Virus record (IMG/VR): IMGVR_UViG_3300047539_000052
Location: 4,310 to 68,309 of that record
DNA length: 64,000 nt
DNA from: a virus
Lineage: Duplodnaviria > Caudoviricetes
Strand: one strand, 5' to 3'
Shown here: in pieces, positions 48-25,161 of the stretch
How positions within the stretch are numbered: the stretch's first letter is position 1
How the letters are laid out: each line of letters begins with the position of its first letter
Program-made: the position numbers and the translations under genes
Notes under the pieces: model-generated
The model's input: only the letters and a program-made list of their open reading frames with translations
Databases searched by the model: none
Told to the model about the DNA's origin: nothing

Positions 48-1025
48 ATGAAGAAATTCCGGAAGCTATTCGCCATTTCCCTGTTTGCGCTGCTTTGTGC
101 GCTGCTTTATGCAGTCGGAGCCTCGGCGCAGATTATCGGAAGCGAAGGACATCTGCAGCAAACCGCAGGCATGCCCTGGCAGTTAGGCGGAGATTGGAAG
201 TTCAATTCTTCCTCGACGGCCACGCCGGGTTTTGACGTCCGCGGACTCAGCTATTACCGCCTGACCTGGGTTCCAGTGGGCACGGTCAGCGCCTGCACGC
301 TCTCGATTGATTCGGCGACCAGCGTCGTAGCCGGCACCGGTGCCCTCTCTTCTCCATCCATCGGCGGCATTTTGAGCGCGGCGACCATTGGCTCCTGCGC
401 CACGGCGGGATCGTATGTCACGTCAACGACTGCAGGAATTTCGGCTTACGGGCAGATCACGCCGACCATTACCGGAACCGGTTCGGTCATCGTTGTGTTG
501 TACGGCTATACCGATAGCAAGGCGGCGGGAGCGGGAAGCTCAGTCACAGTTACCTCGCCGGTCGATGGCAGCAATTACGTCGAAGTGAACTGCAAAACGG
601 GATGCAGTGCGGGAAACGCCAATGGTCAAGCGACAATGGCGAACTCCTCTCCGTTTGTCATGGCCAGCGATCAATCAGCGATTCCGGTGACCGGCACTTT
701 CTACCAGGCCACGCAGCCGGTCAGTATCGCGACGGCACCGACTACTCCCACTCAGCCATCCGGATTTAGTTCGTCACCGCTTTCCGGCCAAGTAGCCGCC
801 ACAGCCTCAGCGGTCGCATTAGCCTCCAATTCGACGCATCAAGTCTGCATTACCGCACTCTCGGCTAACACAATTCCCGTCTATGTGGGCGCAACCGGGA
901 TTACAACCTCAACCGGATTTCCCCTGAACGCGGGTGATTTCTACTGCTGGCAAGTGAATAACTCCAACCTTCTTTACCTGATCGCTTCGACTACCGGGGC
1001 ATCCATCGCATGGACGGCGCAATGA
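48..1025 (+). CDS. Ser/Thr/Gly-rich hypothetical protein with N-terminal signal peptide
   Basis: ATG at 48 in ORF 12..1025; MKKFRKLFAISLFALLCALLYAVGASA-Q fits a Sec signal; ATGA overlap with next gene. Confidence 0.7.
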   Translation: MKKFRKLFAISLFALLCALLYAVGASAQIIGSEGHLQQTAGMPWQLGGDWKFNSSSTATPGFDVRGLSYYRLTWVPVGTVSACTLSIDSATSVVAGTGALSSPSIGGILSAATIGSCATAGSYVTSTTAGISAYGQITPTITGTGSVIVVLYGYTDSKAAGAGSSVTVTSPVDGSNYVEVNCKTGCSAGNANGQATMANSSPFVMASDQSAIPVTGTFYQATQPVSIATAPTTPTQPSGFSSSPLSGQVAATASAVALASNSTHQVCITALSANTIPVYVGATGITTSTGFPLNAGDFYCWQVNNSNLLYLIASTTGASIAWTAQ

Positions 1026-2689
1026 AAAAACTGTCGGCGGTTCTCGCTCTCCTATTCGTGAGCGTCTGCGGCCATGCCCAAATCTCGGGCTCATCCAGCC
1101 GACCGCTGACGGTGCAGAATAATGGCACATCTGCGGGTACGGTGACCGGCCAGCGGGTGCTGAATTTTGTATCAGGCTGCACGGCGACATTGACCAGCGG
1201 AGTTTTCAATATTACCTGCAGCTCGGGCGGAGTGACGGTCAACGGGGGATCCAATATTGCCGTTCCAAACTTCCAGAATGGCACTGGCGGAAACATCATC
1301 AACTTCGTGGCCGCCGGTTCGAACATCCAGGCGAGCATTCCGACCGATACCGTTACCAATTCGATGCTGCAGAATAACGGCACAACGGTAGGCGGGGCAA
1401 ACTGCGTATTGGGAGCAAGCTGCACGCCAACCCTCGACGCCATCGGTTCGCCGCAGACCAACACTAACGTTTCTTTTACCGCATCAGCGGGGTACGGCTA
1501 TACCTTCCTGGGCACGGCTCCGGCTTCTACTTCTTCCGGGACGGGCACAGCACCTGGAACTTTATTCAACGCCATGGCGCCGACTGGAGGAGCAACAACG
1601 GGATCAGCCACAACGGCGGGAGCAGGCGGAAATATTTCCTACACGGCGGGCGCAGGCGGATCAGGATCGGGCGGCACAAACGCCAGCGGCGGAGCAGGCG
1701 GAAGTATCAATCTTATCCCCGGAGTAGGCGGAGCGAAGTCTGGCTCTGGAACGGCGGGCGTGAATGGGCAGGTAAATATCGGTCTGGCAGGCACGATCGG
1801 CGGCATCCTGGGCTTTGCCGGGCTGACCAGCGGCACCGCGACTTGCACGGCGCCGGCAGTGGCAGGAACGGCGACAAACGCTGTCGTGTGTAGCAACGGC
1901 TTCAATGTGCCGCAAAACAGCGGGACAGCGGTCAACGGCGGCTCAACTCCGTACTATGCCTTTACGGGAGATACAAAAACTGGCATGGGAGCAGTGGGCA
2001 CCTCAACGTCAGAGGCTGGCCTTTATTCGAACGGAAATCTGATTGCCTATTTCGGCGCCCTCGCCACTGGAATGACGCTCTACAGTACCAGTCCCATTCG
2101 CTGGTCCGATTTCTCCACGTTCAATGACACCTATCTCTGCCGCGCCAGTGCTAGCGTCTTCGAAGTGGGCACGACTTCCTGCAACGCCTTGGGCACGCTG
2201 AACACTGGAGTCATCAACACAGGGACTTCGGTAGCAGCCGGCGGCTTTACAGCGGTCAGCATTGGCACGCCGACGCAGATTTACAATACCGCGACGACTT
2301 CCTCCTCGGCCTCGATCTCGGCAACTACGATGATTGCCAATGGAGCGGCGGACCGGAATTATCGCTTCAATGCCTATGTCGGCCAACTGGCGGCGGGAGC
2401 CACCTGCTCCGTCGCAGGTTCCATAGCCATCAACATCGTTTACACCGATCCCATCACTGGAACCGCCTATACCTATGTCGTGCCCGTTCTCCTGAGCGGC
2501 GGTACCGCAATGGGCGCGAACGTTCCGCTCTCCACTTCTACGCCGACGGTTGCGAACGTAGGCAACGCGACGATCCAATTCCGCGCGAAGGCGTCCACCA
2601 ATGTGCAGTTCTCGACGACCTACGCGCAGGGTACGTGTAGCTCTGGATCACCCACTTACAGCATTTACCCGGATTTGGAGGCGCTTTGA
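1022..2689 (+). CDS. Gly/Thr-rich fibre/adhesin-like protein with signal peptide
   Basis: ATG 1022; MKKLSAVLALLFVSVCGHA-Q; glycine-rich GGAGG-type repeats. Confidence 0.65.
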   Translation: MKKLSAVLALLFVSVCGHAQISGSSSRPLTVQNNGTSAGTVTGQRVLNFVSGCTATLTSGVFNITCSSGGVTVNGGSNIAVPNFQNGTGGNIINFVAAGSNIQASIPTDTVTNSMLQNNGTTVGGANCVLGASCTPTLDAIGSPQTNTNVSFTASAGYGYTFLGTAPASTSSGTGTAPGTLFNAMAPTGGATTGSATTAGAGGNISYTAGAGGSGSGGTNASGGAGGSINLIPGVGGAKSGSGTAGVNGQVNIGLAGTIGGILGFAGLTSGTATCTAPAVAGTATNAVVCSNGFNVPQNSGTAVNGGSTPYYAFTGDTKTGMGAVGTSTSEAGLYSNGNLIAYFGALATGMTLYSTSPIRWSDFSTFNDTYLCRASASVFEVGTTSCNALGTLNTGVINTGTSVAAGGFTAVSIGTPTQIYNTATTSSSASISATTMIANGAADRNYRFNAYVGQLAAGATCSVAGSIAINIVYTDPITGTAYTYVVPVLLSGGTAMGANVPLSTSTPTVANVGNATIQFRAKASTNVQFSTTYAQGTCSSGSPTYSIYPDLEAL

Positions 2690-2708
2690 TGGGCCGGATT
2701 CGACGAAT

Positions 2709-3287
2709 GTGGGGGCTAGTGTCTATGACGGTGACTCAATCACGGTAGGTTCATTCGCCACTCCCTATCCTGATTTCCTGAGCGTGTTCGCGGGAGGATG
2801 GAAATCCTACAACGTCGCAGCGCCCGGACGCACGACGGCACAGATTCTATCGGGGTTTTCGTCCAGCGTTGCACCCTTGGCGAGTTCCGGCCTCAACATC
2901 TATACCGTCCTCGGTGGAACAAATGACTGTTTGCAAAGCGTATCGGCATCAACGGCATGGAGCAATCTAGCCAGCATCGCAGCGGCTGCACACAGCGCAG
3001 GGTTCAAGGCTATCGTGATGACCCTGCCGAGCCTAAATGGCTATAACACTTGTCGCGATGCGCTGAACACACTGATCTATGCGAACTGGTCCGGAACCTT
3101 TGACGGGCTTGCGGATATCGCAGGGAACGCCAATCTGGGAGCGGATGGGGCGTACAGCAATGCAACGTATTTCAACGCCGATGGCATTCATCCCACAACC
3201 TATTCCGAGCAAACCATTATGGCCCCGCTCGAACAGACGCAGATCAATGCGCTGGTTTCTGCACACTACGGCGGAGCTGGGCACTAA
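2709..3287 (+). CDS. SGNH/GDSL hydrolase (esterase) domain
   Basis: Blocks DGDSIT, LGGTND, DGIHP; only a GTG at 2709 precedes the catalytic block, so it may be a frameshifted C-terminal domain of 1022..2689. Confidence 0.75.
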   Translation: MGASVYDGDSITVGSFATPYPDFLSVFAGGWKSYNVAAPGRTTAQILSGFSSSVAPLASSGLNIYTVLGGTNDCLQSVSASTAWSNLASIAAAAHSAGFKAIVMTLPSLNGYNTCRDALNTLIYANWSGTFDGLADIAGNANLGADGAYSNATYFNADGIHPTTYSEQTIMAPLEQTQINALVSAHYGGAGH

Positions 3288-3304
3288 GGAAGGAATTTCC
3301 CTCG

Positions 3305-3601
3305 ATGACCTACATCCGTATGACCGATGGCCGGGATAAAGGCCAGATCAAAGATGTTCCCTTTGTCACGGCAATGGAATTGATTAAGTTCGCGAAAGCG
3401 TTGCCCATCGACTTTAACGGGCCGAATCCGCTGGCGGTGCGCGAAGTACCAAAGGCCGCAAGCGTCTGTTGCCTACTGTTGCCCCTGTGCGTCTGTACCT
3501 GTGGGAAATGTCGATCTACGCGCGGCGGCTCCGAGAATATGTCGCGCCTGAATCAAGTGACTCGCGCCGCGCCTCCGGTCGTCCGCAAAAAGTCCCGGTA
3601 A
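3305..3601 (+). CDS. small hypothetical protein
   Basis: ATG 3305 after AGGA-rich upstream sequence; 3' half may be frameshifted. Confidence 0.4.
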   Translation: MTYIRMTDGRDKGQIKDVPFVTAMELIKFAKALPIDFNGPNPLAVREVPKAASVCCLLLPLCVCTCGKCRSTRGGSENMSRLNQVTRAAPPVVRKKSR

Positions 3602-5944: not shown

Positions 5945-6360
5945 GAGCTTGGCACAGTTCCTTGTCCACGAAGCCAGCCGCTACTTCTGCTTCTGGCATC
6001 ATCGGCTCTCAGCAGTGGAATGATATTCAGCCGGTGGGCTATGTGACGTCAAACTATTCCGCGAGTGGAACCGTTCCCACAACGGTTGACCTCATCCGAG
6101 CGATCGGCGGAAGTGGCGGCATCGCGTTGCTACTCACTCCTAAACTCAGTTCGATAAGCGGGGCCAGCGGGACGTTCTATGTCGGCCAAGTCTATAAGGC
6201 AATCAAAGCCGATGCCGCCGCCGGAGCCGTGAACTTCGCTGATCTGAATGGCGCACTCATTGGTGGCGCCTCTTCCTATTCGCTTACCCAGCAGGGACAG
6301 TGGGCCGAGTTTTCCTGGAATGGTACTTCTTGGGACGCATTTGGAGGACAGGCCGCTTGA
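5941..6360 (+). CDS. hypothetical protein
   Basis: ATGA overlap with upstream gene, 139 aa. Confidence 0.55.
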   Translation: MRAWHSSLSTKPAATSASGIIGSQQWNDIQPVGYVTSNYSASGTVPTTVDLIRAIGGSGGIALLLTPKLSSISGASGTFYVGQVYKAIKADAAAGAVNFADLNGALIGGASSYSLTQQGQWAEFSWNGTSWDAFGGQAA

Positions 6361-6481
6361 GAATGTCCACGCTTCAACTCATCCGAGCCGGACTCGTCTG
6401 CCAGAAGAGGCGAATGCGCTATTTTCGGAAGACTGCAATGGCCGCCGCGAGACAAAGACACAGAGGATAGCACACACCCAA

Positions 6482-8093
6482 ATGAAACCCACATTCATCG
6501 CATCGGTCGCGTTCATATTGGCGTTGGCATTCTCTGCGTCTTTGTGTCTCGGCGGAGCGGCTTTCGGACAGACTCCGGGCCTCGCGACACGGATTGCGCA
6601 TGGCTCAACGCTTCCCTCGGGTGCGGAGCAATTCAGCGAGTTCGAACTGACGTCCGGGACGCCGACTCTTTATATCTGCAATGCGAATCCCTGCACCAAT
6701 TCCGGGCAGTGGGTGACCTCGACCGGAAGCGCCGGCTACGTCAATGTGGCGCTCTCGAATTTGTCCGGCGTGGCCATCAATACGGCGCTCTACTCCGCAA
6801 CCGGCGTGAACATGACCATCTCGGGATTTCCCGGAACTAGCGGGAATTCGCCGACCAGCAGCTATGTTCTTGGCGGAAATGCCTATACGAGCACCTCGCA
6901 GACCCCGGGATCGATTTATGTCCAACCCGGCTCAACTTCCGCGGTCGGCGCTACTCCAGGCAATATCAACCTGATCGGACAGGCGGGATACGGGACTACG
7001 GGCTCCGGCTCGAATATCTACGTGCAAGCGGGCGCCGGCGGATCCACTTCGCCGCGAGCCGCCGGGTTAATCAGTTTCGGCGGCGGCGGCGCCTCGGCCG
7101 TCAGTTCCGAAAGCTCTCCACTCACCGGCAGTTATGTGCCGTCGCTTTATGTCAACGCGGGCGCGAGCACCTTTGGCGGGGAAGTGGATTTCGTGAATGT
7201 GGGCAGTTCGAACGGCGTGATCCGGGTGACCGGGATGCCCTTCGCATTTTATGCGGACAATACCTATGACTTCGATCTGGCCGCCTATCGTCCGAAGAAT
7301 GTTTACATCGGGACGGGCCTTTATCTGGGCTCGACAACGGTTGGATTCACCGGGATTACGAGTGCCATCTCGGGCAACCTGATGGCGGCTGGAACGGTGG
7401 CAGGATCTTCGATTCCACTCTGCACGGATGCCTTCGGGAGATTTGACGATTACGACCGTGAGCTGCCCGAGCTTTCCGACTACAGGCACGTTGACCAATG
7501 GCAATTATGTGAGTGCGAGCGGAACGGCGGCGGAGCAGGATTCCGGCGTGCTGGCCGGACCCTACACAACCCTTCCCTGGGAGACGGCGCCGAATTGCTC
7601 GGGCGGAAGTCTCGGCACCATTACAAGCGCAAACAAGAGCTACGTCTTCGGTATCACGCTCGAATTTCCACTCAGCACCTCGAAGATCTTTTACGACGTC
7701 ACCAACTCGGACAATACCGGCAACGAATACGATCTGGCAGTTTATCAGGGCGCGCCGAGCGGGACTGAAAACCGATTACTGCATACCGGATCGAGCGCCT
7801 CGACGGGACAGCCGGGAACCACCTTCGCGCCGGCGAATGGCTGGCAGCATTTGAACTGGTACGAGGGAACAACCGTACTCCAGCCGGGGCGCTATTACGT
7901 GATGTTCACCTCAAGCTGCACTTCGGGCGGAGCGTACTGCGCGGAGATTGCGTCGAACGCATCGAGCGAAATGTTTTACTGGCCAGGGAGCGGGGGAGTA
8001 AGTATTTCTTCCGGAGGCAATTCGCCCACAACGTACTCCAGTTCCGCCGATTCTCCGGGCTCGAACACCGTGCCCTGCCTGCTGGTGGAGTAA
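6482..8093 (+). CDS. Ser/Gly-rich fibre-like protein with signal peptide; one frameshift near 7433
   Basis: MKPTFIASVAFILALAFSASLCLGGAAFG-Q at 6482; CTDA|SGDLTIT restored by removing one base. Confidence 0.6.
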
Positions 8094-8097
8094 GCGG

Positions 8098-8592
8098 ATG
8101 ATCGAAAGCGGACTTTACACCTGGGCGATTACAAACGCTGCGATTCAGCCGTTGCTTGGACAAAGCGCTCAAGAAAAGACGGCCAAAACTTATAGCGCCT
8201 TTTATTTTTCGTTTCTGCCGAAAACACCGACCCTACCGGGAATTATTCTCGATCGCTTGAAGGGCATGGATGAAGTGGACTCGTTTGATCCGCGGACTGC
8301 ACAGCCGGGAGTCTTGCAGTGGGCGCGCTTCCAGTTCGGGGCGGTCGCGCAAGACAGTTCGGCGAATCCGGCGAATCCCTCCGGCTATCTGAGCGCGGCG
8401 CGGCTCTCGAAAGAATTGCGCTTGCAGATCATGGGACTCTGCACCGGGAATGCTGCACTTCCGGATGGCACGCTGATAAAAGACCTTCGCATCGATGACG
8501 AATACGATGCGCACTTTGAGGTGGGCGGCGAAGGTTACGTCTATCGAAGAATGCTGCTGTTTACCATCTGGTTTGAAGACCTTTCTTCCTAA
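8098..8592 (+). CDS. putative tail terminator/completion protein (DUF3168-like)
   Basis: MIESGLYTWAITNAAIQPLLG N-terminus, ~165 aa, immediately before tail tube genes. Confidence 0.55.
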   Translation: MIESGLYTWAITNAAIQPLLGQSAQEKTAKTYSAFYFSFLPKTPTLPGIILDRLKGMDEVDSFDPRTAQPGVLQWARFQFGAVAQDSSANPANPSGYLSAARLSKELRLQIMGLCTGNAALPDGTLIKDLRIDDEYDAHFEVGGEGYVYRRMLLFTIWFEDLSS

Positions 8593-8595
8593 ATC

Positions 8596-9072
8596 ATGGC
8601 CCCTCCTCTCACCGTTGGATACGCCGGCCGAGGCACATTGCTGGAATATTCGCTCGACAATGTAACGTTTACGGTTCTTGCACAACTGCAGCAGTTTGAA
8701 CCCTCGGGATCGAAGCAGACGATTATCGAGCAAACGAATCTTTCTTCGCCCGGCAACTTCGCGCAATTTCTTGCGGTGCAGATCGATGCGGGAGAAATCT
8801 CATTTTCGGGCGTGCTCAATCCCGAAGATCTGTCTTACCTGACCTTGCTGCAGCTTCACGGCAATATGACGCTCGTCTACTGGTGGGCTTCGCTGATTGA
8901 CGGCAGCAGTTTTTACTTTCAGGCATTTGTAAGCGAGATCGTGGCCTTCGTCGCCAAGTGGAATAAGGCTTATACGTTCAGCGGCAAGTTGCGCTTGACC
9001 GGCGGCATGACAAGTCCGCTCGGAACCTTCGACGCGGCCACGTTTGATCCGCTGGTCTTCGGCGCGTTTTAA
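8596..9072 (+). CDS. tail tube protein paralog 1 (lambda gpV/TP901-1-like)
   Basis: GRGTLLEY...TNLSSPG....IDAGEISFSG...DGSSFYFQAFV pattern. Confidence 0.65.
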   Translation: MAPPLTVGYAGRGTLLEYSLDNVTFTVLAQLQQFEPSGSKQTIIEQTNLSSPGNFAQFLAVQIDAGEISFSGVLNPEDLSYLTLLQLHGNMTLVYWWASLIDGSSFYFQAFVSEIVAFVAKWNKAYTFSGKLRLTGGMTSPLGTFDAATFDPLVFGAF

Positions 9073-9144
9073 CTCTCGCTTTTAGTTCCATCCGATTTTT
9101 TCTGTAGCACCCATCAATACAAAATACAAAAGGAGAAACACCCA

Positions 9145-9597
9145 ATGGCAAATCCAGTTGGATATCAGGGGCGCGGAACCACGATTGGCTTCAATCTCAC
9201 GCCTTTCACCGGCGCCTACACACTGCTTCCTCAACTCGAAAAATTCGAGAAGACGAACGCAAAAGTGGACTTCGATGACATCACCTGTCTCGACAGTCCG
9301 GGCGTGAACAAATTCCCCTTGCCGATCGTAGTCGATAACGGTAAGTGGAGCGGAGAAGGCGTCTACGATCCGCAGAACGCGGGCATCACCGCGCTTCAGG
9401 GCTACATGCAGGCGCTCACGCAGTTGGGCTTCAAGGTGACCTTGGTCGATGGATCGACATTCACCGGACTCTGCTATGTGGAAGAGTTCTCCGCAGCGAA
9501 GGTCGATCGCTACAAGGCCAACATGTTTGGCTTTGGCATTATGGTTTACGGAGTTGAGACCCTGACTCCACTTGGCGGCGGGGCAGTTTCCGAGTAG
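9145..9597 (+). CDS. tail tube protein paralog 2
   Basis: GRGTTIGF...TCLDSPG....VDNGKWSGEG...DGSTFTGLCYV; RBS AAGGAG. Confidence 0.7.
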   Translation: MANPVGYQGRGTTIGFNLTPFTGAYTLLPQLEKFEKTNAKVDFDDITCLDSPGVNKFPLPIVVDNGKWSGEGVYDPQNAGITALQGYMQALTQLGFKVTLVDGSTFTGLCYVEEFSAAKVDRYKANMFGFGIMVYGVETLTPLGGGAVSE

Positions 9598-9669
9598 TTT
9601 TCGGCGGTTGTCTTTGGGTGGGGCGGACCACAGATACAGGTCCGCCCATCTCCTGCTAAGATTCGTTCC

Positions 9670-9996
9670 ATGCGAACCTTTCTGCGAGCCTTTTTGTTCT
9701 CGTGCCTTTTTTATTTTCTTGCCATCGTGGTTCTCTTCAGACTTGGCGCATTTAGCCAAACGAAGCCGGAACAGCCTTCCTACGAACTCACCGAACTGCA
9801 GAAGGCTCACCTCGATGCAACTCGGCAGGAAGTCTTTCGCTGGCAGGACAAACTGAATGAAGCGCTGGGAAAATTCAGCGCACAATGTACGCAAGCGCAA
9901 AAAGAAAATAAATGGCCAAACGTGCAATGCAGTCTTGAAGATCTCAGCGTGAAGCCACAAACTACGCCTGAGCCCGCAGCAGCGCCCAAGAAGTGA
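9670..9996 (+). CDS. small coiled-coil protein with signal peptide/TM anchor
   Basis: Hydrophobic N-terminus ending GAFS-Q; helical remainder with two Cys. Confidence 0.55.
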   Translation: MRTFLRAFLFSCLFYFLAIVVLFRLGAFSQTKPEQPSYELTELQKAHLDATRQEVFRWQDKLNEALGKFSAQCTQAQKENKWPNVQCSLEDLSVKPQTTPEPAAAPKK

Positions 9997-10000
9997 CCCT

Positions 10001-10650
10001 ATGAATCAAGCTCTGATCGAAGCCATCACCGGCGAACCAGTCACGGTAAAGCTTGGCAAGCCGGGGAAGCAGAAAGAGTATCCGCTCGCTACCCCATGCA
10101 GGCGGTGATTCTCTACCAGAAGCAAACGGCGATACTCGATCGGGAGCGCGCCAAGAATCGCCCAGCCCTAACGACCGAAGAAAGACGGTCCAAGAAATCC
10201 CTCTGGCAGAAGCTGATGCTCGAAGCGGATCAAATGCGTCCGCCAAAAGGCGAGGCGTGGGACCAGGGAAAATTTCTCGAATTCGACACACTGCTCGACG
10301 AGGCCGCCGAACTCAAGATTACACTCGATGAAGATGCCGGACGGGGCGACAGTTTGTATGACCGCTACAACTGGCGAAAGATGTCGAGCGAGCGCGATCC
10401 CGAAAGACTCTTACTGGCGCTCTGGGTCGGACTGCATACCTTCACGGAGGAAAACGGGAAGCAGTTCTATAAAGAAGCAGTCACGCGGCACGAACTCGGT
10501 CGACTGGTCGATCTGCAAAACGCCGACGTGGTAACCGTTGCCATCGCCAAAGCCTTGCAAGGCCATCTGATCGCACCTCCGGAATTTGAAGCGTCCGAGA
10601 TGGAAGGTGCGGACCCAAACGCCCAGACGCCGGCAACTCCGGCGGCCTAA
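10001..10650 (+). CDS. tail assembly chaperone (gpG-like); probable 1-nt indel near 10090
   Basis: ATG 10001 MNQALIEAITGEPV joins the 10096..10650 frame as YPLAYPMQAV; ends shortly after a slippery site. Confidence 0.65.
10614..10620 (+). promoter_or_regulatory. programmed -1 ribosomal frameshift site C CCA AAC (gpG/gpGT)
   Basis: XXXYYYZ heptamer in the gpG zero frame (codons D-P-N); the -1 frame is open from 10614 to 11027. Confidence 0.8.
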
Positions 10651-11027
10651 AGCTACCCTCTGAAATCAGTATCGGGAAACTGTGGGCCATCGCTCGAACC
10701 GATTTAGGTTTGGGCGATGATGAGTTTCTGAGCGTGATTCCAGCGGCACTCGAACTCCTGATGCGGCGGCTTCAGGTGCATGACAGAAAAGCATTACATG
10801 GGCCAGCAATGGTCTGCGCGGAGGTTTGGAATGCGGCAGGAATGCACCTCGACCGGGATAAACTTCCCGAAGGATTAGTCCCGAAAGACTTCCTCCCTGA
10901 GCTTCCGGAAGAACGAATGCAGCGATTGGTGGAGGAAGAAGAAGAAAGAAACTATGTGCCTACCGCAGAAGAGCTGGCGGCGTTTAAGGAACGGTTGATG
11001 AAGGCGCCGAAGAGTTTTAAGCACTAA
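10614..11027 (+). CDS. tail assembly chaperone frameshift extension (gpT-like)
   Basis: -1 frame reads ..KLWAIARTDLGLGDDEFLSVIP..; no own ATG. Confidence 0.7.
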   Translation, partial: PKRPDAGNSGGLKLPSEISIGKLWAIARTDLGLGDDEFLSVIPAALELLMRRLQVHDRKALHGPAMVCAEVWNAAGMHLDRDKLPEGLVPKDFLPELPEERMQRLVEEEEERNYVPTAEELAAFKERLMKAPKSFKH

Positions 11028-11029
11028 CC

Positions 11030-11428
11030 CTACCAATTTGCTTTTGCGCGGGCATCCGCTTTGGCGTCCGCTTCATGGGCGCGTTTGACGCGAGCCATTA
11101 GGTTTTGGCATCGCTCCTGATTTGCCTTATGGGTTGGGGGCGGTTCATTGGTGCATTTATAGAAGAGATCGCCTTCGGAATCGCTAAACTTCGCGTTTAC
11201 GTATCTGATTTCTAGTTCCCGCATTACACGCTGATGTTCGAAATTTTGGTTGTCGATGACTTCCTGCATGTGCCGCTGCGCTTCAACGAAGGCAGGATTG
11301 GCGTTTGGATTGGGCTCCTGACCTGCGGCTATTAACATGACCACGACGAAAATAGCCACAATGCCAGCGATAACAACAGAAACGTTTCGAACAGTCTTCG
11401 TCATAAACTGATGCTCCTTCGCTGCCAT
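11030..11428 (-). CDS. antisense moron, membrane-anchored hypothetical protein
   Basis: TM segment VSVVIAGIVAIFVVVMLIAAG; own promoter upstream. Confidence 0.6.
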   Translation of the reverse strand: MAAKEHQFMTKTVRNVSVVIAGIVAIFVVVMLIAAGQEPNPNANPAFVEAQRHMQEVIDNQNFEHQRVMRELEIRYVNAKFSDSEGDLFYKCTNEPPPTHKANQERCQNLMARVKRAHEADAKADARAKANW

Positions 11429-11437
11429 TTGGACGAA

Positions 11438-11466
11438 ACTATCCTCTATTTCTGAGGCCTAGTCAA
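11438..11466 (-). promoter_or_regulatory. sigma70-like promoter of the 11030..11428 moron
   Basis: TTGACT-17 bp-GATAGT on the minus strand, 9 nt before the ATG. Confidence 0.5.
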
Positions 11467-11505
11467 CGATTTTCAAAACTCTAGGGTCTAAAGTCCTCAT
11501 CCCTT

Positions 11506-15400: not shown

Positions 15401-18400
15401 CCGAACTTGCCCGCAGTCTATAGCGCACTTGAGGAAGTAAAGAAGCAGCAGATCAGGCCCACGCGTGCAGACCGATGGGATGACGCGGGCGGTTGCCGAA
15501 CTGCTCGGCGATCTGGACAGGCTCGGAGGGAATGCAACTTGGGTCAAGATGGACGCCGAGATTACCCGGCTCACGGAACACCTGAAGCTCGCGCCCTCGG
15601 AGGCCGCGGAACTCCGCCGCATCATCGAGCCGATGGGGAGCCAGAAGATCGTCCCGACGGTTGCGCCCACGGTCGAACTCTCGGACGTTTACGCGAGACT
15701 CAATACCATTCGGCAGACGCAGGTTCGCCCGCAGATTCAGACTTCGCCGATGTTGCAGGCGATTGCGAAGGTGCATTCCGACCTTGGTGATCTGGGAAAT
15801 ATCACCCTCGATAGACTGGATGCGGAGATTCGCAAGGTAGGACAAGACTTCAAACTGCTGCCTTCCGAAGTAGAGGAGATTAAGCAGGTTCTCAACGGCC
15901 TGAATGTCACGGTCGCGCCTGCCGTGGCTTCGCCTGAACTTCGAAAGAAAGTGGACGGAGACCTCGAATCTTTGGTGAACAAGCAATTTAACCCAAAGAT
16001 TACGCCGACGATTGAAACCGAACACGCCGCGGCAGCGGTCAACCAGATTCGCGCCTACATGAAGAGCATGGGTGACGACCTCACCTGGCCGAAGCTCGAT
16101 GCGCAGGTCAATCAATTTAGCGGCGATCTGAAACTCCTGCCGGCGCAGATCTCAGCCATCCGCGATGTGCTGGCCCCCTTGCAAAATGTGAGCATTGCAC
16201 AAACCGCGAGCGCGTCCGAGGGGATTTCCAAAGTGAAGGCCAACCTCTTAGGCATTCAGACGCAGCTCACGCCAACCATTCAGACCGACGGCATGAAACA
16301 GGCCATCGCCGAATTGCATGCCGAACTGCACACGCTGGACGGAAATACTGCATTGCCCATCATGGATGCGGCGGTAAAGAAACTGACGGATGATCTGAAG
16401 CTGGCGCCCGCTGAAGTCGCGAAGATTCACCAAGCGTTGTTGCCTCTCAAGGACGCCGCTCTCGCGCCGGTGGTGGCTCCATCCGTGCATCTGGCCGATG
16501 TCAACGCCGCGCTCAGTACGGTAGAGCACCAAAAATTCACTCCACAGATTCAGATCGGCCCATTGATGCAGGTTATCGCCAACCTGCGAAAAGAACTTGG
16601 ATCGGTGGGCGATATCAGTCTGGCGAAGCTCAATGCGGAAGTGGTCAAACTCGGGGCTGATTTCAAACTGCTGCCCGCGGACGTGGACCGGATCCAGCAG
16701 GCGATCAATCACCTAACGCCGGTTGACGTGGCGGTGCGGACGGCGGCGATTGAAAAGGCAGACGCCAATATCCTAGCCCTGGGACAAAAGCAGCCGGCTC
16801 CGACGATTCAGACCAGTGGCCTGAGTGAAGCCATCAGACAGATCCTTTCCCAAATCGATAGCCTTGGCGGCATCGTAACCTGGGAAAAACTGGACGCGCA
16901 GATCATCGCGCTTACCGACCATTTGCATCTGGTTCCCGAGCAGGTAGCCGAACTCCGCCGCATCATCGAGCCGATGCAGTCCATCAAATTCACGGCTACG
17001 ATTCCGCCCGAGATGGTTGCGGAAGCGGAGGCGAAGCTCCGGAAGTTGGCGGCGCCGCTAGTTCCCACCGTCCAGACCGGGAACCTGGATCGTGCCATCT
17101 CTGTATTGTCATCCGAACTGAAGCGCATGGATGGGCCGACCGCGTTTCCGAGGATGGATGCGGAAGTCGTGAGGCTCACCAAGGATCTAAAGCTTGCGCC
17201 GGAAGAGGCTGCGAAGCTTCATCAAGCTCTGCTGGGCCTGCAAGATATCAAGGCTGAACCGAAAGTAGTTCCCACGCTGCATCTGGCGGATGTGAATGCC
17301 GCTCTTGAAACCATAGCGCATAAACAGTTTGCACCTCAGATTCAGACGTTCGCATTAACGCAAGCGATTGCCACTCTGAAAAGAGACCTAGGGACGGTCG
17401 GGAATATCAGCCTGTCCAAGCTTGATGCCGAGATTGCAAAACTGGCGAGCGACTTCAAGTTGATGCCTCCCGATGTCGAAGAGCTTCGGAAGGCCCTGGC
17501 GAATGTGAAACTCAACGTTACGCCCATCGTTGCCAGCGCTGCCAAAGAACAGGCGCTTGCGCAACTCGCGGAACTTCGAAAGACAATCGCTCCCCGAGTG
17601 GAAATTGCGTCCAGTTCGCCCGAAGCCATATCCATTCCCGCGCCGACTGTCGGAACGCCGGAAGCCCCGAATGTCCCGAACCTCGCTGCTCCATCGGTTG
17701 AAACTCCCAAGATTCCACTCGCTGCCGCTCCAACACTTCCGAAGGTTCCCGCTCCGACCATTGAAGATTTGACTACTCCTCCTATTACGTTCTCAGCGCC
17801 TTTAAACATTCCCGCGCCCACGGTCGGCACGGCGCAAACTCCCACTCCTACGCAAGCCACGGCTCCCGAGATTGCTGCGCCCAAAATCGCCCTACCCACT
17901 CTGCCGCCTGAAGCAACTGCACAACTAGAGGCCTTTCTCGACAAAACTAAAGAGGAAGGCGGCACGCTTACCTATTCGAAGATGGATGCGGAGATTGTAA
18001 AACTGGGAGCCGACTTCAAACTCCTGCCGGGAGACGTGGCCGCGTTGCGCGATGCCTTCTCCTTCCTTCTCAAACCCGCGCAGCAGATCGACATGGTGCT
18101 GGAATCCCTGCTCACGAAAAATATCAGCCCCAAACTCAAAGCAGTCGCCAAAGAACTCCAGCATTACATCGCGACCACGGGAGACGTCTCCTCATCAGGT
18201 ATCAACTATGAAATTGACAAGCTCACACAGGAGCACGGAGTCGAAGCCCAGGCATCCGTCATTAGGCAGCCCGTACAGGTTGTGGAGCAAAGGATTGAAG
18301 CGCAACAGGAATTGGATAAACCACAAGACCCAGCAGAGGCGAAGCGACTTATGCACGCCCAGCAGTATGCAGAAGAGCTGCACAAGATCACGGATGAAAT

Positions 18401-19967
18401 ACTATCGCAAAACGCGGCACAGCTTTCTGGTTCCGCCAGGTATGAGGCAGAACTGCAAAAGATCCTCCCCTATCTGGAAGCGTCGGCGAAACTAGCCGGC
18501 ATTTCTCCAGAGAACTTCAGTAAGGAAATCGACAATCTTCGCAAAGCTTACAGCGATCTGCAAAACGCGAAGATCGGAGGCGAGTTTGAGAAGCTTGTCC
18601 ATCAAATCCAGCTTGCCAGCATCGAAGCCTCAGCCTTTGCAACAGCCGATCCCTCCGCCAGACAAGAAGCGGAAGCACAGAAACTCGGTTTCGAATACCA
18701 CGCGAATGCGAAGCAGATTGCACTCGTCAAGAATGGCTTGATCGATCTCCAGCGAATTGAGAATGTGGGCAAAGCCTGGCTTAACGTAGATGCGCTGAAT
18801 GCGGCCGGGGCGAAGATGCAGGAACTCCAGCAGCAGATGGCCTATCTGAATCAGGCTGCAAAATCCGGGCAGACCATCACCGATAAAGGCGAAATTATCC
18901 AACTCTCCCCGCAAGCTCTCGCTGCCGTCAAATTGGAGATGCTCGATATTCAGAGCGAAGAAGACAAGATCGCACTAAAAACCGGAGACGTTAACGCCGG
19001 ATTCCAAGCTTGGATTACGCAATTACAGCATGTCCAAAGCGCCGGAGAGCTAACCCTTGAAGGCCTCGATCAGACCATGAAAGGGTTTGAAGATACCGCC
19101 ATCAATTCCCTGATGGCGGTGATGACCGCGCAGCGCGGCGAGCACCTAAAGCTGATCCGCGAACTGGATAAGATGTGGTCCCAATATTTCGATGGCCTCG
19201 CCAAAATGGCCATGAAGCAGGGGATGAACCAGCTATTAGCTCCGCTACTGAAACCCTTCCAGAAACAGCCGCCGGGGCAGGAAGATCCATTCGCTCCTAC
19301 GGCAAAGGGCGCCCTTACGGGTCTGGGATCATTTCCGAAGGCCGGAGGCGCGGCTGGTCTCACGCAAGCGGGTGGCTTGCTATCGGCGGCCGCACGAGAA
19401 CTTAGCGCGGCAGCAGCAGCCTTGCGAGGTGGCGCGGTGGGCGCCCCTACTACTTCTAGCGGAATTCCTTTCTTAGGGGGAATGGGCGGCGGCGGAGGCG
19501 CGGATGCTGGCGGTTCTCTCGGAGCCGGAGGAGACTTCGCTGGTTTCTTTGCCGAGGGCGGCGACGTCACTCCTGGAAGCAGTTTTGTCTCTGGCGAAGC
19601 CGGAGCGGAACAAGTGGACCTCGATCGCAGCGGGGGCGCCCACATTACGCCATTAGGATTCAGCGCTTCGGGCGGTGGAGATACGCATCAACACTTCGAC
19701 ATGAGGGGCGCAGTCGTAACCGATGATCTGATGCGACGAGCGGAAGCGGCAGCCTTAGTCCATGCCAGCCAAAAGCAGATGATGGGTGCCATGCCTGCAC
19801 AGCAGAGAGAAATCAATTTGAGGAAGCGGGAGTTTGAAAACCTCGAATTCTCGGTGAGTCGGCTTTCTCCAGGGGATGTTTTCATTGAATTTGTAGGTAA
19901 AGCGGAAGGATGGATCGGTACGGAACGGAAATGCTCCCACCGCAGCGCTAACTGCGAGACAAACTAG
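12482..19967 (+). CDS. tape measure protein (~2,490 aa); one frameshift near 15464
   Basis: N-term MATLNVGAMAARLGLDPSEF, helical Ala-rich body, internal repeats, C-term FFAEGGDV..GEAGAE; ORFs 12482..15790 and 15465..19967 join as RPT|VQTDG by removing one base. Confidence 0.85.
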
Positions 19968-20204: not shown

Positions 20205-21671
20205 ATGCCTGCTTCCCTTGTCCAAAGTGCCACGTCAACTCTGAGCGGTGGCACAACTACGACCGCGACCTTTACGAATCCCGCGAAAGTTGGAAACTTT
20301 GTTATCGTCTCCTTCTGGTTCGCCCTGCCATCGGCAGACTCCGGCCCTCCGGTCATTACGGATACCTACAACAATTCCTTTATCATGGCCACTCTCGGGA
20401 ATGTCTTCGTTCCGGGAAGCGAGAGCACCACGCCGGTTTATCTCTATGCAGGCGTCGCTTATGCCGTAACGACTACCAGTGGCCCGGGGCAGGCGGTCAC
20501 CATCGTCTGGGATACGGCAGAAGTAAACTTTGTCACCATCTCAGAATGGAACAATTTGGAAGGACTCGAGGATGCAGTTTTTGCCGGCGTAAATGTGGCC
20601 GCAGGAACGCCCACCGCCGCGCCGACCGTAGGGCCAGTCACTCCGCCCTCGGATGGAGAGCTGGTTTATTGCATGTTCGTCTCCGACGGTCTGAATTACA
20701 GCGGGAATCCAGCTGCTGGAGCCGGCTTTAATCTTATCCAATCGGTTTACTATCCGAATTTCGCGTGGGGCGATGAGTACGTAATTCAAAGTGCCGAGGC
20801 TCCCGTCACCGGCACTTTCGAGGCAGGCGGCGTTTTCGCATCTCCCACCGGCTACGTTGCGGTTATCGTTACCTTCACCTCAAACGGCCCTCCGGCCTCC
20901 GGCACGTTAATGGAGAGAAGCTTTGCCTGCAATGGCTGCTTTGAATCTACGAGCGCTTATGGAGACGTGCTAAAGAGTTTGGCCCTCAGCATGGCCGGGT
21001 TTGTTGTTCCCCCAGGTGATTGCTGGCGAGTCTACGCAGGAAGCTACGTCCCTCCGACCGTAACGCTACAAGATATCGATTGTCGCGCGGCCATCAAGGG
21101 AGATTTCCGCCTATCAAGTCGTGATACTTGCAACGGAGTAAAAGGCCAGTACATCCCCGGATTTCTTCCCATCAATCCTTTAGGGCCACTTTCTTCCTCT
21201 CCGGCAAGTTCGGCGTGGAAGAAAACCGACTTCCCTCCGGTCCAGCGCGCGAACTACATCGAGGAAGATGATGGAATCATCCTCTGGAAAGATATCCAAC
21301 TGGATTTCACAATCAGTCTTTGGATGGCGCAGCGCATTGCGCGGATCGTGCTGGAACGATTAAGACGGCAGGTTACGGTTTCGCTTCCGGCCAAGCTTAC
21401 CGGCCTCGCTCTGCTCGCAGCCGACACGGTTGAATTTCTGCACGCGCGTTGGAATACGGCAGTTCCGCCTCCGCCCACTACCTTTCAGATTTCTCACACG
21501 GCTTTAAGGATGGAATCTCAGGCGGATGGAGTACCGGGGTTTGGCGTGGATTTAGTGCTGCGGCAGACCGATGCGGAAGTGTATGAGTTCGATCCGCCAA
21601 CCTCGCCGACGAATTGGGGATCGTACTCTGGATATGGTCAAACTGGAATTGGGGAAGGCAACGTAGAGTGA
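20205..21671 (+). CDS. tail-tip/host-specificity protein, C-terminal half, with an extra N-terminal beta-rich domain
   Basis: ERSFACNG..DVLKSLALSMAG....WRVYAGSY..P; NGVKGQY; WKDIQLDFT...AQRIARIVLERLRRQVTVSLP motifs of J-like tip proteins. Confidence 0.7.
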   Translation: MPASLVQSATSTLSGGTTTTATFTNPAKVGNFVIVSFWFALPSADSGPPVITDTYNNSFIMATLGNVFVPGSESTTPVYLYAGVAYAVTTTSGPGQAVTIVWDTAEVNFVTISEWNNLEGLEDAVFAGVNVAAGTPTAAPTVGPVTPPSDGELVYCMFVSDGLNYSGNPAAGAGFNLIQSVYYPNFAWGDEYVIQSAEAPVTGTFEAGGVFASPTGYVAVIVTFTSNGPPASGTLMERSFACNGCFESTSAYGDVLKSLALSMAGFVVPPGDCWRVYAGSYVPPTVTLQDIDCRAAIKGDFRLSSRDTCNGVKGQYIPGFLPINPLGPLSSSPASSAWKKTDFPPVQRANYIEEDDGIILWKDIQLDFTISLWMAQRIARIVLERLRRQVTVSLPAKLTGLALLAADTVEFLHARWNTAVPPPPTTFQISHTALRMESQADGVPGFGVDLVLRQTDAEVYEFDPPTSPTNWGSYSGYGQTGIGEGNVE

Positions 21672-21955
21672 GAATGCGGAAAGCTAAAGCCCGCTGCTGT
21701 CGTGTAAGCGGGCTCTAGGTGCTGCTCTTTTGGCGCTCAGCCCATCCTCTGAAGAACCGTCTGAGACTTGAACTCCCGTTTCGCCGGTCCTCTGCGACAG
21801 CCCAGTAGCAGGATCACGTGTCGGTCCCCTTTACTCTCAGCCGCCTCGGGGACGAGATCTCCGTCAGTTTCTTCTCAGTCTTGCGGGCCTTGCTGTTTGT
21901 GGAATGTCTCGCGACGTTCGCTCGAAAAATCCTATCACGCGGCCTTGGAGTTTGC

Positions 21956-22534
21956 ATGAAACTGAAACTTTTATCTGTGATAATCGCGGCTCTAATTCTG
22001 AGTTCCGCGGCCTTTGCCCAACTGCCCTGTTTTGGCACAGCACCAGTCACGCCAAACCTGGGCTTCTCAATTCCGGTCTACAACTTCAACAACTGGAATG
22101 TGAACATCAATGACGATTTCTCCTGCCTGGATAATTACTTATCGGGAGCAACCGCCATTCCAGCAATCAAGATTACAGGAGCGCCTTCTGGCAGCGTTGT
22201 CGCGGCAGATGGAACGGGATATGTAACCCCGCTGCTCTCGGTCGCAAGCGGCACAGTTACCTTTCCCACAGCGACCTATTCGTCTGGTGCGTGTGGAACG
22301 GTGCAGAGCCTGACGGCAACGGGTGCGCTTTCGACAGACCGGATCAGTACCACTCCTAACGCTAACTGGGCCACGATTTCCGGCGGCGGATTCGTTCCTG
22401 GCGTCTCTGGAAATCCGCTGACGGTAGTGCCCTTTATCAGTTCCGGTCAAGCCAACTTCCAACTCTGTAACTACTCCTCATCGAGCGTTACAACGACGGC
22501 CTCCACTACGGCCAATTGGGGAGTGACGCGGTGA
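21956..22534 (+). CDS. fibre-like protein with signal peptide
   Basis: MKLKLLSVIIAALILSSAAFA-Q; TPNLGFSIP...WNVNINDDFSCLD resembles tail-fibre N-termini. Confidence 0.6.
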   Translation: MKLKLLSVIIAALILSSAAFAQLPCFGTAPVTPNLGFSIPVYNFNNWNVNINDDFSCLDNYLSGATAIPAIKITGAPSGSVVAADGTGYVTPLLSVASGTVTFPTATYSSGACGTVQSLTATGALSTDRISTTPNANWATISGGGFVPGVSGNPLTVVPFISSGQANFQLCNYSSSSVTTTASTTANWGVTR

Positions 22535-25161
22535 GGAGAGCGCTCCTTATAGTTCTCGGGCTCCTGGTAGTCTCGGGCTCGGCATGGGCGACGGAATATT
22601 ATATTTCGCCCACGGCCTCGGGCTCGAATAACGGTACCTCCTGCGCAAACGCATGGGCCTACACCAACAGCTTAGTTGGCAGCTCCCAGGCCGCCAACGT
22701 TACCATTCACTTTTGCTCGGGCACTTACACGGCCAGCGCCGACGGCACGATCGTCACTTTCACGGCCAGCGGAACCAGCGGCAATCCCGTGACCATGATC
22801 GCGGACCAGGGAGCGGTCATCTTTCAGGCACCCTACTTCAATGGTTCCAGCGGGGCGATTTCGAATAGCGGCTCGACCTCTTACGACGTGCTGAATGGCG
22901 ACGGCAACCTGACCATTCAGAATACAGCCAATGGAAGCTCGCTAGCCAATCAGCAGCAGAGCGTTGGCATGGGGTTTACCAATTGCACCCACTGCACCAT
23001 CGAAAATACCACGGTTAAAAACATATACGTCAACGCTGGCAGCTCCTCGAGCGCCACAAATACCAGTGGGGGAAATACCGCCTGCATCGTCATCAACGGA
23101 TCGTCGACCAGTTCCGTGATCAGCGGCAACACGGTCTCGCAATGCAAAACCGGGATCCAGCTGGGAACCGATTCCGGGGGTGATGCTTCGAATGCGCAGA
23201 TCACGGGGAACACAATTTCCGATATGGATTGGGGGATCAATGTCGGCGGCGGCGACTCCGGCGATACCATCAACAATCTTGAAATCGACCATAACAGCAT
23301 TACCAACTGGACCAACTGGCAGTATCCGACCGGCGCCTATCACCAGGACGGAATCATACTTTTCAATGTGGGCAATCCGAGTGCCGGCCTGAGCGCGATC
23401 ATCCACGACAATCACATTTTTGGAAATCTCGGCACAGGTTCGCCCACCGGCTTTATTTACTGCGCCGATTTCACGACCTGCACCATTTACAACAATCTGC
23501 TGGATAACACCGGGAACATCATTTACGGGATTATGTGGCTTGGCCAAAGCTCCGACCTTGGCAAGAACATGAGCGTGTACAACAACACGATCATCGGCGC
23601 CACTGCCTCCGACGTTTGCATCATGCTGAACATCACCGGGACCGCCTCAATAGAAAACAACGTCTGCACCGGACCCGCCGGCATGTTCATTTACAGTACC
23701 TATCTCAGCACGCTTGCTGATTTTCTGGGAGTGATCTCGGTATCGAATCACAACGTCTGGAACGTTGGCGCGGGCAATGCCTGGGGATCACAGGCCAGCG
23801 GCAATACCGCAAGTTATGCGACCTGGCAGGGCGATGGGAAAGATGCGAACAGCTCGCAGGCCACGCCGAACCTGAATAGCGGTTTCATCCCACAGCCGAC
23901 TTCTTCCGCCATTGGAGAAGGCGCGAATCTCTACAGCACGCTTTCGGGCGATGTGCTGAATACGGATTATGCGGGCAACTCCCGCGGCGGGTCTTCCTGC
24001 ACGCCGGTAGCGGGCACTGCGGGATGCTGGGATGCGGGTGCGCTCATGTATATGGGCGGCGGAGGCGGCGGAGGCGGACTCGCCACGCCAACCTGTAGTC
24101 CAGGCACGGAGACCACGAACAATACCATAAGCGTATCTTGCACGGTTGTCTCGGGAGCAACTGGTTGCTATACCCTGAGCGGCACAGCTCCGACGGCTCC
24201 GACGCCTGGAACCTGCGGCGGCGGATCGACTACTTATTCAGCGGCAATCAGCGTCACCTCAAACTCCGCCCACAATCTTCAGATTCTCGCGACCGAATCC
24301 GCGCAGACCAATAGCAGCGTGCAGAGCTATACCTACACCTTCACTGTGGGTCCGATCAGTTGCGTTCCTGCCACGGAGACATTTACCACGTCGGTCACGA
24401 CAAGCTGCAATAACCCAACCGTTGGGGCGCTCGAGTATTACACAACGGATGGATCTACGCCCATCTGCGCCTCCTCACCTGCTCTGACTGGCCTTGTGAC
24501 TTTCACGACGACGACAACCATGAAGGTCATCGCCTGCCAAACCGGCTATAACAGTTCCACCGTTACCAATGTCTATACCCTTAGCGGCGGTGGCGGCGGC
24601 ACTTTGGCAACGCCAACCTGCTCGCCAGGTACGGAGACGGCGAACAACAGCGTAAGCGCAGCCTGCGTGTTTACCTCGGGAGAAACAGGCTGCTATCGAC
24701 TGGACGGAACGGCACCGACTGCGCCGACTCCAGGAACTTGTGGCAGCGGATCGACTGCTTATTCGGCGCCAATCAGCATCACTTCGAATGCAGCGAACAA
24801 TCTCCAGATCCTGGCAACTGAATCCGGGTTCACCAACAGCGCGGTGCAAAGCTATTCCTACACTTTCACGGTGGCCACTCCGGTTCCTTCACCACCAGCG
24901 GGAACTTACACCAGCACCCGCAGTGTGACCTTAAGCACGGGCACAACCGGCGCGGCCATTCATTATGCCATCGGCTCAACGCCAAACTGCTCCTCCACTC
25001 TCTATTCAACGGCAATTTCGGTTTCTTCTTCCGAGACTGTGGAATCGATTGGCTGCCTCTCCGGCTATAACAATAGCGCCGTAGATAGTGCTGCCTATGT
25101 GATCGGTGGTGGTGGATCACCCTCGCCTGCCGGATTAAGCCTCGTCGTGGGAGGGCCATAA
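22531..25161 (+). CDS. parallel beta-helix (pectate-lyase-like) protein with chitobiase/Fn3-like C-terminal repeats and signal peptide
   Basis: GTG start overlapping upstream TGA; RRALLIVLGLLVVSGSAWA-T; I.I.NN-type repeats, YHQDGIIL; repeated ATPTCSPG/ATPVPSPPAGTY modules. Confidence 0.75.
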   Translation: MRRALLIVLGLLVVSGSAWATEYYISPTASGSNNGTSCANAWAYTNSLVGSSQAANVTIHFCSGTYTASADGTIVTFTASGTSGNPVTMIADQGAVIFQAPYFNGSSGAISNSGSTSYDVLNGDGNLTIQNTANGSSLANQQQSVGMGFTNCTHCTIENTTVKNIYVNAGSSSSATNTSGGNTACIVINGSSTSSVISGNTVSQCKTGIQLGTDSGGDASNAQITGNTISDMDWGINVGGGDSGDTINNLEIDHNSITNWTNWQYPTGAYHQDGIILFNVGNPSAGLSAIIHDNHIFGNLGTGSPTGFIYCADFTTCTIYNNLLDNTGNIIYGIMWLGQSSDLGKNMSVYNNTIIGATASDVCIMLNITGTASIENNVCTGPAGMFIYSTYLSTLADFLGVISVSNHNVWNVGAGNAWGSQASGNTASYATWQGDGKDANSSQATPNLNSGFIPQPTSSAIGEGANLYSTLSGDVLNTDYAGNSRGGSSCTPVAGTAGCWDAGALMYMGGGGGGGGLATPTCSPGTETTNNTISVSCTVVSGATGCYTLSGTAPTAPTPGTCGGGSTTYSAAISVTSNSAHNLQILATESAQTNSSVQSYTYTFTVGPISCVPATETFTTSVTTSCNNPTVGALEYYTTDGSTPICASSPALTGLVTFTTTTTMKVIACQTGYNSSTVTNVYTLSGGGGGTLATPTCSPGTETANNSVSAACVFTSGETGCYRLDGTAPTAPTPGTCGSGSTAYSAPISITSNAANNLQILATESGFTNSAVQSYSYTFTVATPVPSPPAGTYTSTRSVTLSTGTTGAAIHYAIGSTPNCSSTLYSTAISVSSSETVESIGCLSGYNNSAVDSAAYVIGGGGSPSPAGLSLVVGGP

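Follow-up and report, generated by a model that had tools for sequence, protein, structure and literature searches.

Why would genes in the virion operon of a tailed phage, the late proteins of which, in the usual view, are both synthesized and assembled inside the cytoplasm, begin with signals for export? The question is raised by the virus record IMGVR_UViG_3300047539_000052 (68.3 kb), of which we analyzed bases 4310-68309, a stretch of 64,000 nucleotides (nt) that we refer to as the window. A preliminary description of this DNA had noted six signal-peptide genes and a seventh further downstream, and had offered two explanations, a late-expressed exported cell-surface or decoy system or virion parts matured through export. 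We name the genes by their starts, all on the plus strand: SP1 (48), SP2 (1022), SP3 (6482), SP4 (9670), SP5 (21956), SP6 (22531), and SP7 (31129). Judged from the features described below, part of the phage's late program is very probably made outside the cytoplasm. As to its role there, we lean toward accessory proteins that are expressed late, exported via Sec, and folded in the periplasm, that act on the sugar coat of the host, and that are freed at lysis. The predicted features of the seven genes are as follows (aa, amino acids; a slash marks the predicted cleavage site).

SP1, 48..1025, plus strand: 325 aa; leader 1-27 (GASA/Q); beta-sandwich at ~44-154, flexible repeat linker at ~160-240 (motif ..PV.GTFYQATQPVS..), and second beta-sandwich at 245-325
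SP2, 1022..2689, plus strand: 555 aa; leader 1-19 (CGHA/Q); Gly/Ser/Thr-rich fiber-like stalk; jelly-roll head at ~415-555
SP3, first frame, 6482..7432, plus strand: leader 1-29 (AAFG/Q), fiber-like stalk up to LCTDA
SP3, continuation, 7434..8093, plus strand: +1 frame, 219-aa C-terminal domain, ending 4 nt before gene 8098
SP4, 9670..9996, plus strand: 108 aa; leader or signal anchor (GAFS/Q); helical charged 80-aa part with 2 Cys
SP5, 21956..22534, plus strand: 192 aa; leader (AAFA/Q); small beta-rich domain with 4 Cys
SP6, 22531..25161, plus strand: 876 aa, GTG start; leader (SAWA/T); right-handed beta-helix at ~21-510, Gly linker, and CHB_HEX_C/Fn3_assoc repeats at ~515-860
SP7, 31129..31479, plus strand: 116 aa; very hydrophobic, more anchor-like N-terminus; Cys-rich domain; downstream of the lysis region

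Leaders and cysteine parity

A Sec-type leader for signal peptidase I was defined by a positively charged n-region, an uncharged hydrophobic h-region of ~8-16 residues, and small residues at positions -3 and -1. The translations of SP1 to SP6 have all of these features, and Gln follows the cleavage site in five of them, in full agreement with the preliminary description. Leaders were called with a crude von Heijne-type score that was built on features of the n-region, the h-region, and the cleavage site. All seven SP proteins scored at least 5.5 and the other 77 predicted proteins at most 4.2, a bimodal distribution that argues against chance N-termini. The leader genes are confined to the late region, with 7 of 40 genes there versus 0 of 44 elsewhere (Fisher p = 0.004). 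In five cultured rumen phages, 2, 1, 0, 0, and 0 signal peptides were reported (PMC5723332).

Two of the genes had been described differently from what we found. SP7 does have the hydrophobic N-terminus and the score of a leader protein, but its earlier label as an Fn3 protein did not hold, as it has no Pfam Fn3 match and no match at all in Pfam or PHROG. SP3 is not the clean 428-codon gene that it had been taken for, since its frame breaks after LCTDA (nt 7432). Frame analysis and the GC content at third codon positions (GC3) place the continuation in the +1 frame, and across the junction the motif LCTDA-x-G..TT..C becomes whole again; read through, SP3 would have ~536 aa and 8 Cys. The +1 frame continues with SGDLTITTVSC.., and one additional T near 7433 would account for the shift (7418-7440). 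This frameshift may be an assembly error because the capsid gene, too, has an out-of-frame stretch in comparison to its relatives.

The leaders are kept among homologs. For SP6, 140 homologs were found, and 86 of 119 pass the leader score, with a conserved mature start (..IY..Q..G..G.SC.NA..) directly behind the cleavage motif. The SP1 family comprises 1486 representatives at E <= 1e-3; among the best 150 of these, 74 pass the score, ~15 more visibly bear a leader, and the leader stands immediately ahead of the SP1 N-domain in each member that has this domain. Leaders are also present in 10 of 18 SP2 relatives, in the homologs of SP1 and SP6 on the related viral contig L001, and in a 1862-aa SP3 homolog on contig L076, which has the same mature start motif as well. 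The preliminary description had named homologs that routinely lack the N-terminal segments as an observation that would speak against its view; in the relatives of SP1, SP2, SP3, and SP6, leaders are kept to the extent just given.

An even number of cysteines is a known signature of proteins that are disulfide-bonded outside the cytoplasm, and a test for parity is independent of the leader itself. The mature parts of SP1 to SP7 contain 6, 10, 8, 2, 4, 26, and 6 Cys, thus exclusively even numbers, and often in close pairs, as in SP2. The other proteins of the phage are split into 30 with even and 31 with odd counts. Parity is even in 69 and odd in 5 of the leader-bearing members of the SP1 family (p = 9e-16), and the SP6 homologs gave 66 even and 20 odd counts (p = 3e-7). 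As the Cys content is barely higher in the SP set than elsewhere in the phage (1.94% vs 1.57%), the signal of oxidative folding is carried by parity and not by content.

Since they are conserved across homologs and accompanied by even Cys parity, we regard the predicted leaders as functional features and not as chance, and on these grounds export and periplasmic folding are strongly supported. The contrary view would be that the SP proteins stay inside, with N-termini that are chance products, wrong starts, or cytoplasmic membrane tethers. It could draw on the long h-regions of SP4 and SP7, the N-termini of which may indeed be uncleaved signal anchors, and on the SP3 start at 6482, which is one among several possible starts in a longer open reading frame (ORF). 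Against it stand the leaders in hundreds of homologs with the mature domain right behind the cleavage motif, the strong parity signal, and the bimodal score, so that we consider non-export close to refuted and extremely improbable.

Insertion slots and gene context

The head module of the phage was found in common with seven viral contigs at ~55-80% protein identity, which permits a comparison of gene content at fixed positions. We compared two slots in contigs L001 and L074-L080: slot 1 lies between a 176-aa post-capsid gene and the adaptor gene, and slot 2 lies behind the head-closure gene.

Slot 1, window: SP1, SP2, and a leaderless SGNH/GDSL esterase (2709..3287, plus strand, ~192 aa; Pfam Lipase_GDSL_2, E 2.6e-11)
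Slot 1, L001: three leader genes, which encode a relative of SP1, a protein of 1297 aa, and a beta-helix protein of the SP6 type
Slot 1, L074 and L080: a lipoprotein-like gene and large proteins, one of them leader-bearing
Slot 1, L075, L076, L078, and L079: empty, the SP1/SP2/SGNH cassette being wholly absent
Slot 2, window: SP3
Slot 2, L076: two giant leader proteins
Slot 2, L001 and L077: empty

The esterase gene, which probably starts with GTG 20 nt past the SP2 stop, belongs to the same inserted cassette as SP1 and SP2. A survey of related phages, as the preliminary description had suggested, gave leader genes that recur sporadically in slots of relatives and in Terriglobales prophages. 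Among nine distant Terriglobales prophages, two (L094 and L095) have one clear leader protein each in the structural module, with the one of L094 (925 aa) encoded between the tape-measure and Dit-like genes; two others (L090 and L091) gave three weaker, doubtful flags, and five gave none. Runs of leader genes beside structural genes were also found in the unrelated viral contigs L003, L028, L100, and L102 and in the Terriglobia prophage L072. The run of L102 (IMGVR_UViG_3300031999_000005, 104 kb; positions 6240-16079) comprises five consecutive leader or lipobox genes of 445, 931, 126, 232, and 1011 aa, one of which ends in an SP2-type head. This recurrent, sporadic, and slot-bound pattern fits accessory genes, and by gene content the seven leader genes are optional cargo and not core virion parts.

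Optional genes in a late operon bring morons to mind, and the SP genes could serve lysogenic conversion or superinfection exclusion: expressed from the prophage, they would remodel or block the surface polysaccharide and envelope of the host and thereby keep related phages from adsorption or injection. The phage is temperate, as it has an integrase gene (33932-34744), the SP genes vary between relatives, and presence or absence at one site among close relatives, a hallmark of morons, is seen at slots 1 and 2. PHROG matches of the neighboring genes place SP4 between those for the major tail proteins and that for the tape measure. In HK97, gene 15 is located between the genes for the tail chaperone and the tape measure, and the Lom protein of lambda and the Cor-type proteins are likewise moron-encoded envelope proteins (PMC3594210); by analogy, SP4 may be a small envelope protein and the positional counterpart of HK97 gene 15. 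Ahead of SP5, there is a terminator-like hairpin together with a spacer of 284 nt, and the predicted descent of SP6 from an enzyme of a host polysaccharide locus (see below) would also suit a moron.

Other observations do not fit this picture. Promoter and terminator scans revealed no excess of sigma-70-like or terminator-like sites, with the reservation that the consensus may not suit Acidobacteria. GC3 of the SP genes (0.59-0.66) lies in the range of the flanking genes, so that the deviant composition of morons is not seen. In agreement with the preliminary description, several SP genes are translationally coupled to neighbors: the SP2 start overlaps the SP1 stop (ATGA, 1022-1025), the SP5 stop overlaps the SP6 start (GTGA, 22531-22534), and only 4 nt separate SP6 from the Dit-like gene at 25166. 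RNA contigs from three peat and permafrost metatranscriptomes, in which DNA carry-over is possible, lie on the tape-measure, J-like, SP6, and lysis genes alike. They give no hint of expression of the SP genes only, and such contigs can neither rank expression nor separate lytic from prophage transcription. Finally, a depolymerase under constitutive export would remove the coat of the very lysogen that makes it. A prophage-expressed conversion or exclusion role is possible for some SP genes, above all for SP4, and we regard it as improbable for the set.

Folds, kinship, and place of action of the SP proteins

SP6 has Pfam matches to NosD (1e-5), CHB_HEX_C_1 (2.2e-25), and Fn3_assoc (1.9e-17), its helix is of the CASH/NosD type, and some of its homologs match PF13229. 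Its cellular relatives in seven loci of Terriglobales metagenome-assembled genomes (MAGs; L065-L070 and L073) have 520-550 aa and are 44-59% identical over residues 1-510. All of them are encoded inside polysaccharide clusters, at a fixed place between DegT aminotransferase and GT2 genes, and around L065, Pfam identified Bac_transf, DegT, three GT2, a Wzx-type flippase, and UDP-glucose dehydrogenase. The beta-helix gene is found at ~9900-11600 of each locus, within a conserved Wzx-type cluster. The cellular proteins share the leader and mature start with SP6 and differ from it by the absence of the CHB_HEX_C tail. They are candidates for periplasmic polymer-modifying enzymes, which may be lyases, hydrolases, or epimerases, and SP6 is a putative beta-helix enzyme of this secreted polysaccharide-locus kind. 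The link points to a host polysaccharide that is dealt with by the phage. The alignment of mature SP6 with the cellular relatives extends to its very N-terminus, and the conserved core follows after only ~20 residues; as mature SP6 starts directly at the beta-helix, a particle-binding N-domain would find no space.

For SP1, an AlphaFold2 model was obtained with a mean predicted local distance difference test (pLDDT) value of 78 and values of >90 for both sandwiches. The best match in the PDB was XepA of the prophage PBSX (Foldseek E 1.3e-4; VIA Z 9.3), which alone spans both SP1 domains (model residues 40-325 aligned); YomS gave Z 8.1. A profile of 47 SP1 family members found no match among PDB sequences at E up to 10. 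XepA is a late protein that is exported beyond the membrane and absent from mature particles (PMC6834076), and modeled SP1 resembles it in being built as a double beta-sandwich.

We take SP2, SP3, and SP5 to be fiber-like stalks with jelly-roll heads. In SP2, a variable stalk is combined with a conserved head in a mosaic fashion, and the SP2 model is confident for the head only and poor elsewhere; carbohydrate-binding modules, TNF/C1q heads, and phage fiber tips are similar to the head with Z 7-8.8. Homologs of the head occur with a leader (P0124, P0126, P0127, P0129-P0133, and P0136) and without one (P0125, P0134, and P0137-P0139). For the leaderless P0125, a search for related loci returned only distant ones. 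The C-domain of SP3 falls into viral clusters of the ESM Atlas at 0.93 and resembles small viral proteins without assigned function. For SP5, only two close homologs were found, and it likewise resembles small viral proteins in the ESM Atlas, where a gp53-like fiber tip at 0.85 can be regarded only as a lead. SP1 to SP5 and SP7 gave nothing significant in PHROGs, NCBIfam, and PDB sequence searches; weak matches of SP proteins to PsaL and ATP-synthase-c were discarded as composition effects.

These folds speak in part for the particle. The SP proteins could be optional outer virion parts, such as side fibers, a depolymerase spike, and capsid decoration, that form their disulfides and fold in the periplasm and would be added to the completed particles only when lysis mixes the two compartments. 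The fiber-type modules with jelly-roll heads in SP2, SP3, and SP5 would suit such a role, and the same modules are found leaderless in ordinary fiber-like phage proteins. The likeness of the SP1 N-domain to capsid cement proteins (Z 7-8) would fit as well, as would the place of SP5 and SP6 among the tail-tip genes, with the J-like gene on one side and the Dit-like gene, to which they are coupled, on the other. In Cellulophaga phage phi18:3 (NC_021794), gp085-087 are consecutive large late proteins with leader-like N-termini that were annotated as structural from tandem mass spectrometry (MS/MS), and nine other checked proteins of this phage (eight MS-annotated structural proteins and the portal) have no such N-termini. 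A leader is therefore compatible with particle association, but the MS detection could also reflect co-purification. Against attachment, the slots are empty in collinear relatives, so that the particle can do without these proteins, mature SP6 has no N-terminal adaptor domain, the phage already possesses a leaderless J-like central fiber, and XepA, as the nearest structural analog of SP1, is reported not to be a particle component. We therefore rate docking at lysis as a rather unlikely course, though one to be taken seriously. To the same degree doubtful, and of wider reach, is the idea of a two-compartment assembly of tailed phages, in which Sec-exported side fibers, a polysaccharide-cutting spike, and a XepA- or cement-like capsid protein would join the particle at lysis, and which would recur across soil and marine lineages.

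The reading that we favor is that of exported accessory proteins that remain free, because of the accessory pattern, the cellular ancestry of SP6 together with its missing adaptor, and the analogy with XepA. The preliminary description's option of a late-expressed exported system thus fits best in view of conserved leaders and variable cargo, the homology of SP6 to secreted enzymes, and the likeness to XepA. Export, cleavage, timing, substrate, and benefit, as we infer them, would be the following. The seven SP genes would be transcribed together with the virion genes, and their products would leave the cytoplasm via the host Sec system. Signal peptidase I would remove the leader, leaving mostly Gln at the mature N-terminus, and the proteins would fold in the periplasm with disulfide bonds until cell lysis releases them. 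Outside the cytoplasm, they would bind and cut the polysaccharide coat of the host. The likely gain would be that the progeny escape from the slime matrix and that receptors on the dying cell and on debris are destroyed or masked.

Several observations weigh against free accessory proteins. The SGNH esterase of the exported cassette has no leader. The match of SP1 to XepA exceeds the general level of jelly-rolls only slightly and has no counterpart in the sequence search, the N-domain of SP1 is almost as similar to phage capsid cement or decoration proteins (Z 7-8), and its gene sits right behind the capsid genes. In addition, the modules of SP1, SP2, SP3, and SP5 are otherwise typical of virion fibers, and many of their relatives are leaderless, which keeps a virion role for these four proteins under consideration. 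The leader-like N-termini of the MS/MS-annotated phi18:3 proteins point in the same direction.

If export is as described, a substantial and recurring part of the late program would pass through the secretion and disulfide machinery of the host. As free enzymes or lectins, the SP proteins would form an 'exit and receptor-destroying' toolkit of phages against slime-rich soil bacteria and would be a source of stable extracellular polysaccharide-acting enzymes; docked on particles, they would imply an assembly that spans two compartments. Either way, host-range prediction and virion annotation of soil phages, nearly all of which are uncultured, would have to consider leaders.

Phage map, host, and comparison with known systems

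According to its predicted gene map, the window covers the greater part of a temperate siphovirus genome of 68 kb, and the record is circularly permuted, as the portal reading frame spans both of its ends. The map was built from PHROG and Pfam matches, with PHROG having assigned the J-like and Dit-like genes.

End of the window: terminase and portal
Immediately upstream of the window: prohead protease and major head protein
3779: head-tail adaptor
5582: head closure
8596 and 9145: two major tail proteins
11506: gp10-like protein
12482-15790 and 15801-19967: two paralogous coiled-coil giants (1102 and 1388 aa) at the tape-measure position
20205: J-like fiber piece, leaderless
25166: M/Dit-like protein
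26270: L-like protein
27278: K-like protein
29564-30010: SLT-type endolysin
33932-34744: integrase

The two giants have common repeats with 37% identity over 466 aa and look like a duplicated or split tape measure. A strong hairpin is located at 9600-9650, directly behind the second major tail gene. The tail-tip order at 20205-27736 is unusual in that the J-like piece, SP5, and SP6 come ahead of the M/Dit-, L-, and K-like genes. The canonical order H-M-L-K-J is seen in prophage L072, where the leader proteins follow. The spacer ahead of SP5 (21680-21955) appears to vary in the population, since one DNA contig of run X1 jumps from 21671 to 21947. Outside the window, shortly before its start, the gene for the major head protein is split into two ORFs (2112-3119 and 3129-3524 of the G000 contig, L099) by a short out-of-frame stretch at 3060-3130, and in the relatives L001 and L074-L079 a single ORF encodes 480-527 aa. 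Indel errors are probable in this record.

DNA nearly identical to the window occurs in peat and permafrost metagenomes of 19 studies. As the closest cellular relatives of one phage gene are found in Terriglobales genomes, the host is probably a Terriglobales acidobacterium (Acidobacteriota). The adaptor gene of the phage is absent from all five MAGs with SP6 homologs that were searched for it, a megablast of 25 kb of the window gave no match among GenBank phages, and viral contigs that were scanned with SP6 or the 26270 tail protein as single queries yielded no relatives.

Single phage proteins of the late region that are exported or targeted to the envelope are already known, namely XepA, Lom, gp15, and Cor. 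The statement of the preliminary description that Sec signals are unexpected in this operon was overstated in this sense, as HK97 gene 15, Lom, and Cor-type genes (PMC3594210) as well as XepA (PMC6834076) precede the present case. A literature search returned no description of leader-bearing cassettes in Acidobacteria phages, and no paper on many large, fiber- or enzyme-like, leader-bearing, and Cys-paired proteins across a virion operon.

The lambdoid morons (HK97 gp15, lambda Lom and Bor, and Cor of phi80, N15, and HK022) resemble the SP genes as optional envelope-targeted genes in or beside the tail operon (PMC3594210) that are present or absent among related phages, and HK97 gene 15 is positioned like SP4. 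They differ in that each is a lone small gene that has a promoter and terminator of its own, a deviant composition, and prophage expression, whereas the SP set consists of seven mostly large, fiber- or enzyme-like, coupled genes with neighbor-like composition and no detected signals of their own. With phi18:3, the phage shares Sec-type N-termini in a tailed phage, with Gln after two of three. However, phi18:3 is a podovirus of a Bacteroidota host, its gp085-087 contain 0, 1, and 3 Cys, and they were detected in virion preparations. SP6 resembles the tailspike depolymerases in its right-handed beta-helix, its sugar-binding-type modules, and its location among tail-tip genes, but a classical tailspike is leaderless and binds the particle through a domain at its N-terminus, and in SP6 the reverse is seen. 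In the case of XepA, the likeness to SP1 would be that of a late phage protein outside the cytoplasm that is no part of the particle and consists of two antiparallel beta-sandwiches and a linker. SP1 differs from XepA by its classical, predicted cleavable leader, a longer repeat linker, a gene position behind the capsid genes instead of in the lysis cassette, and a diderm host.

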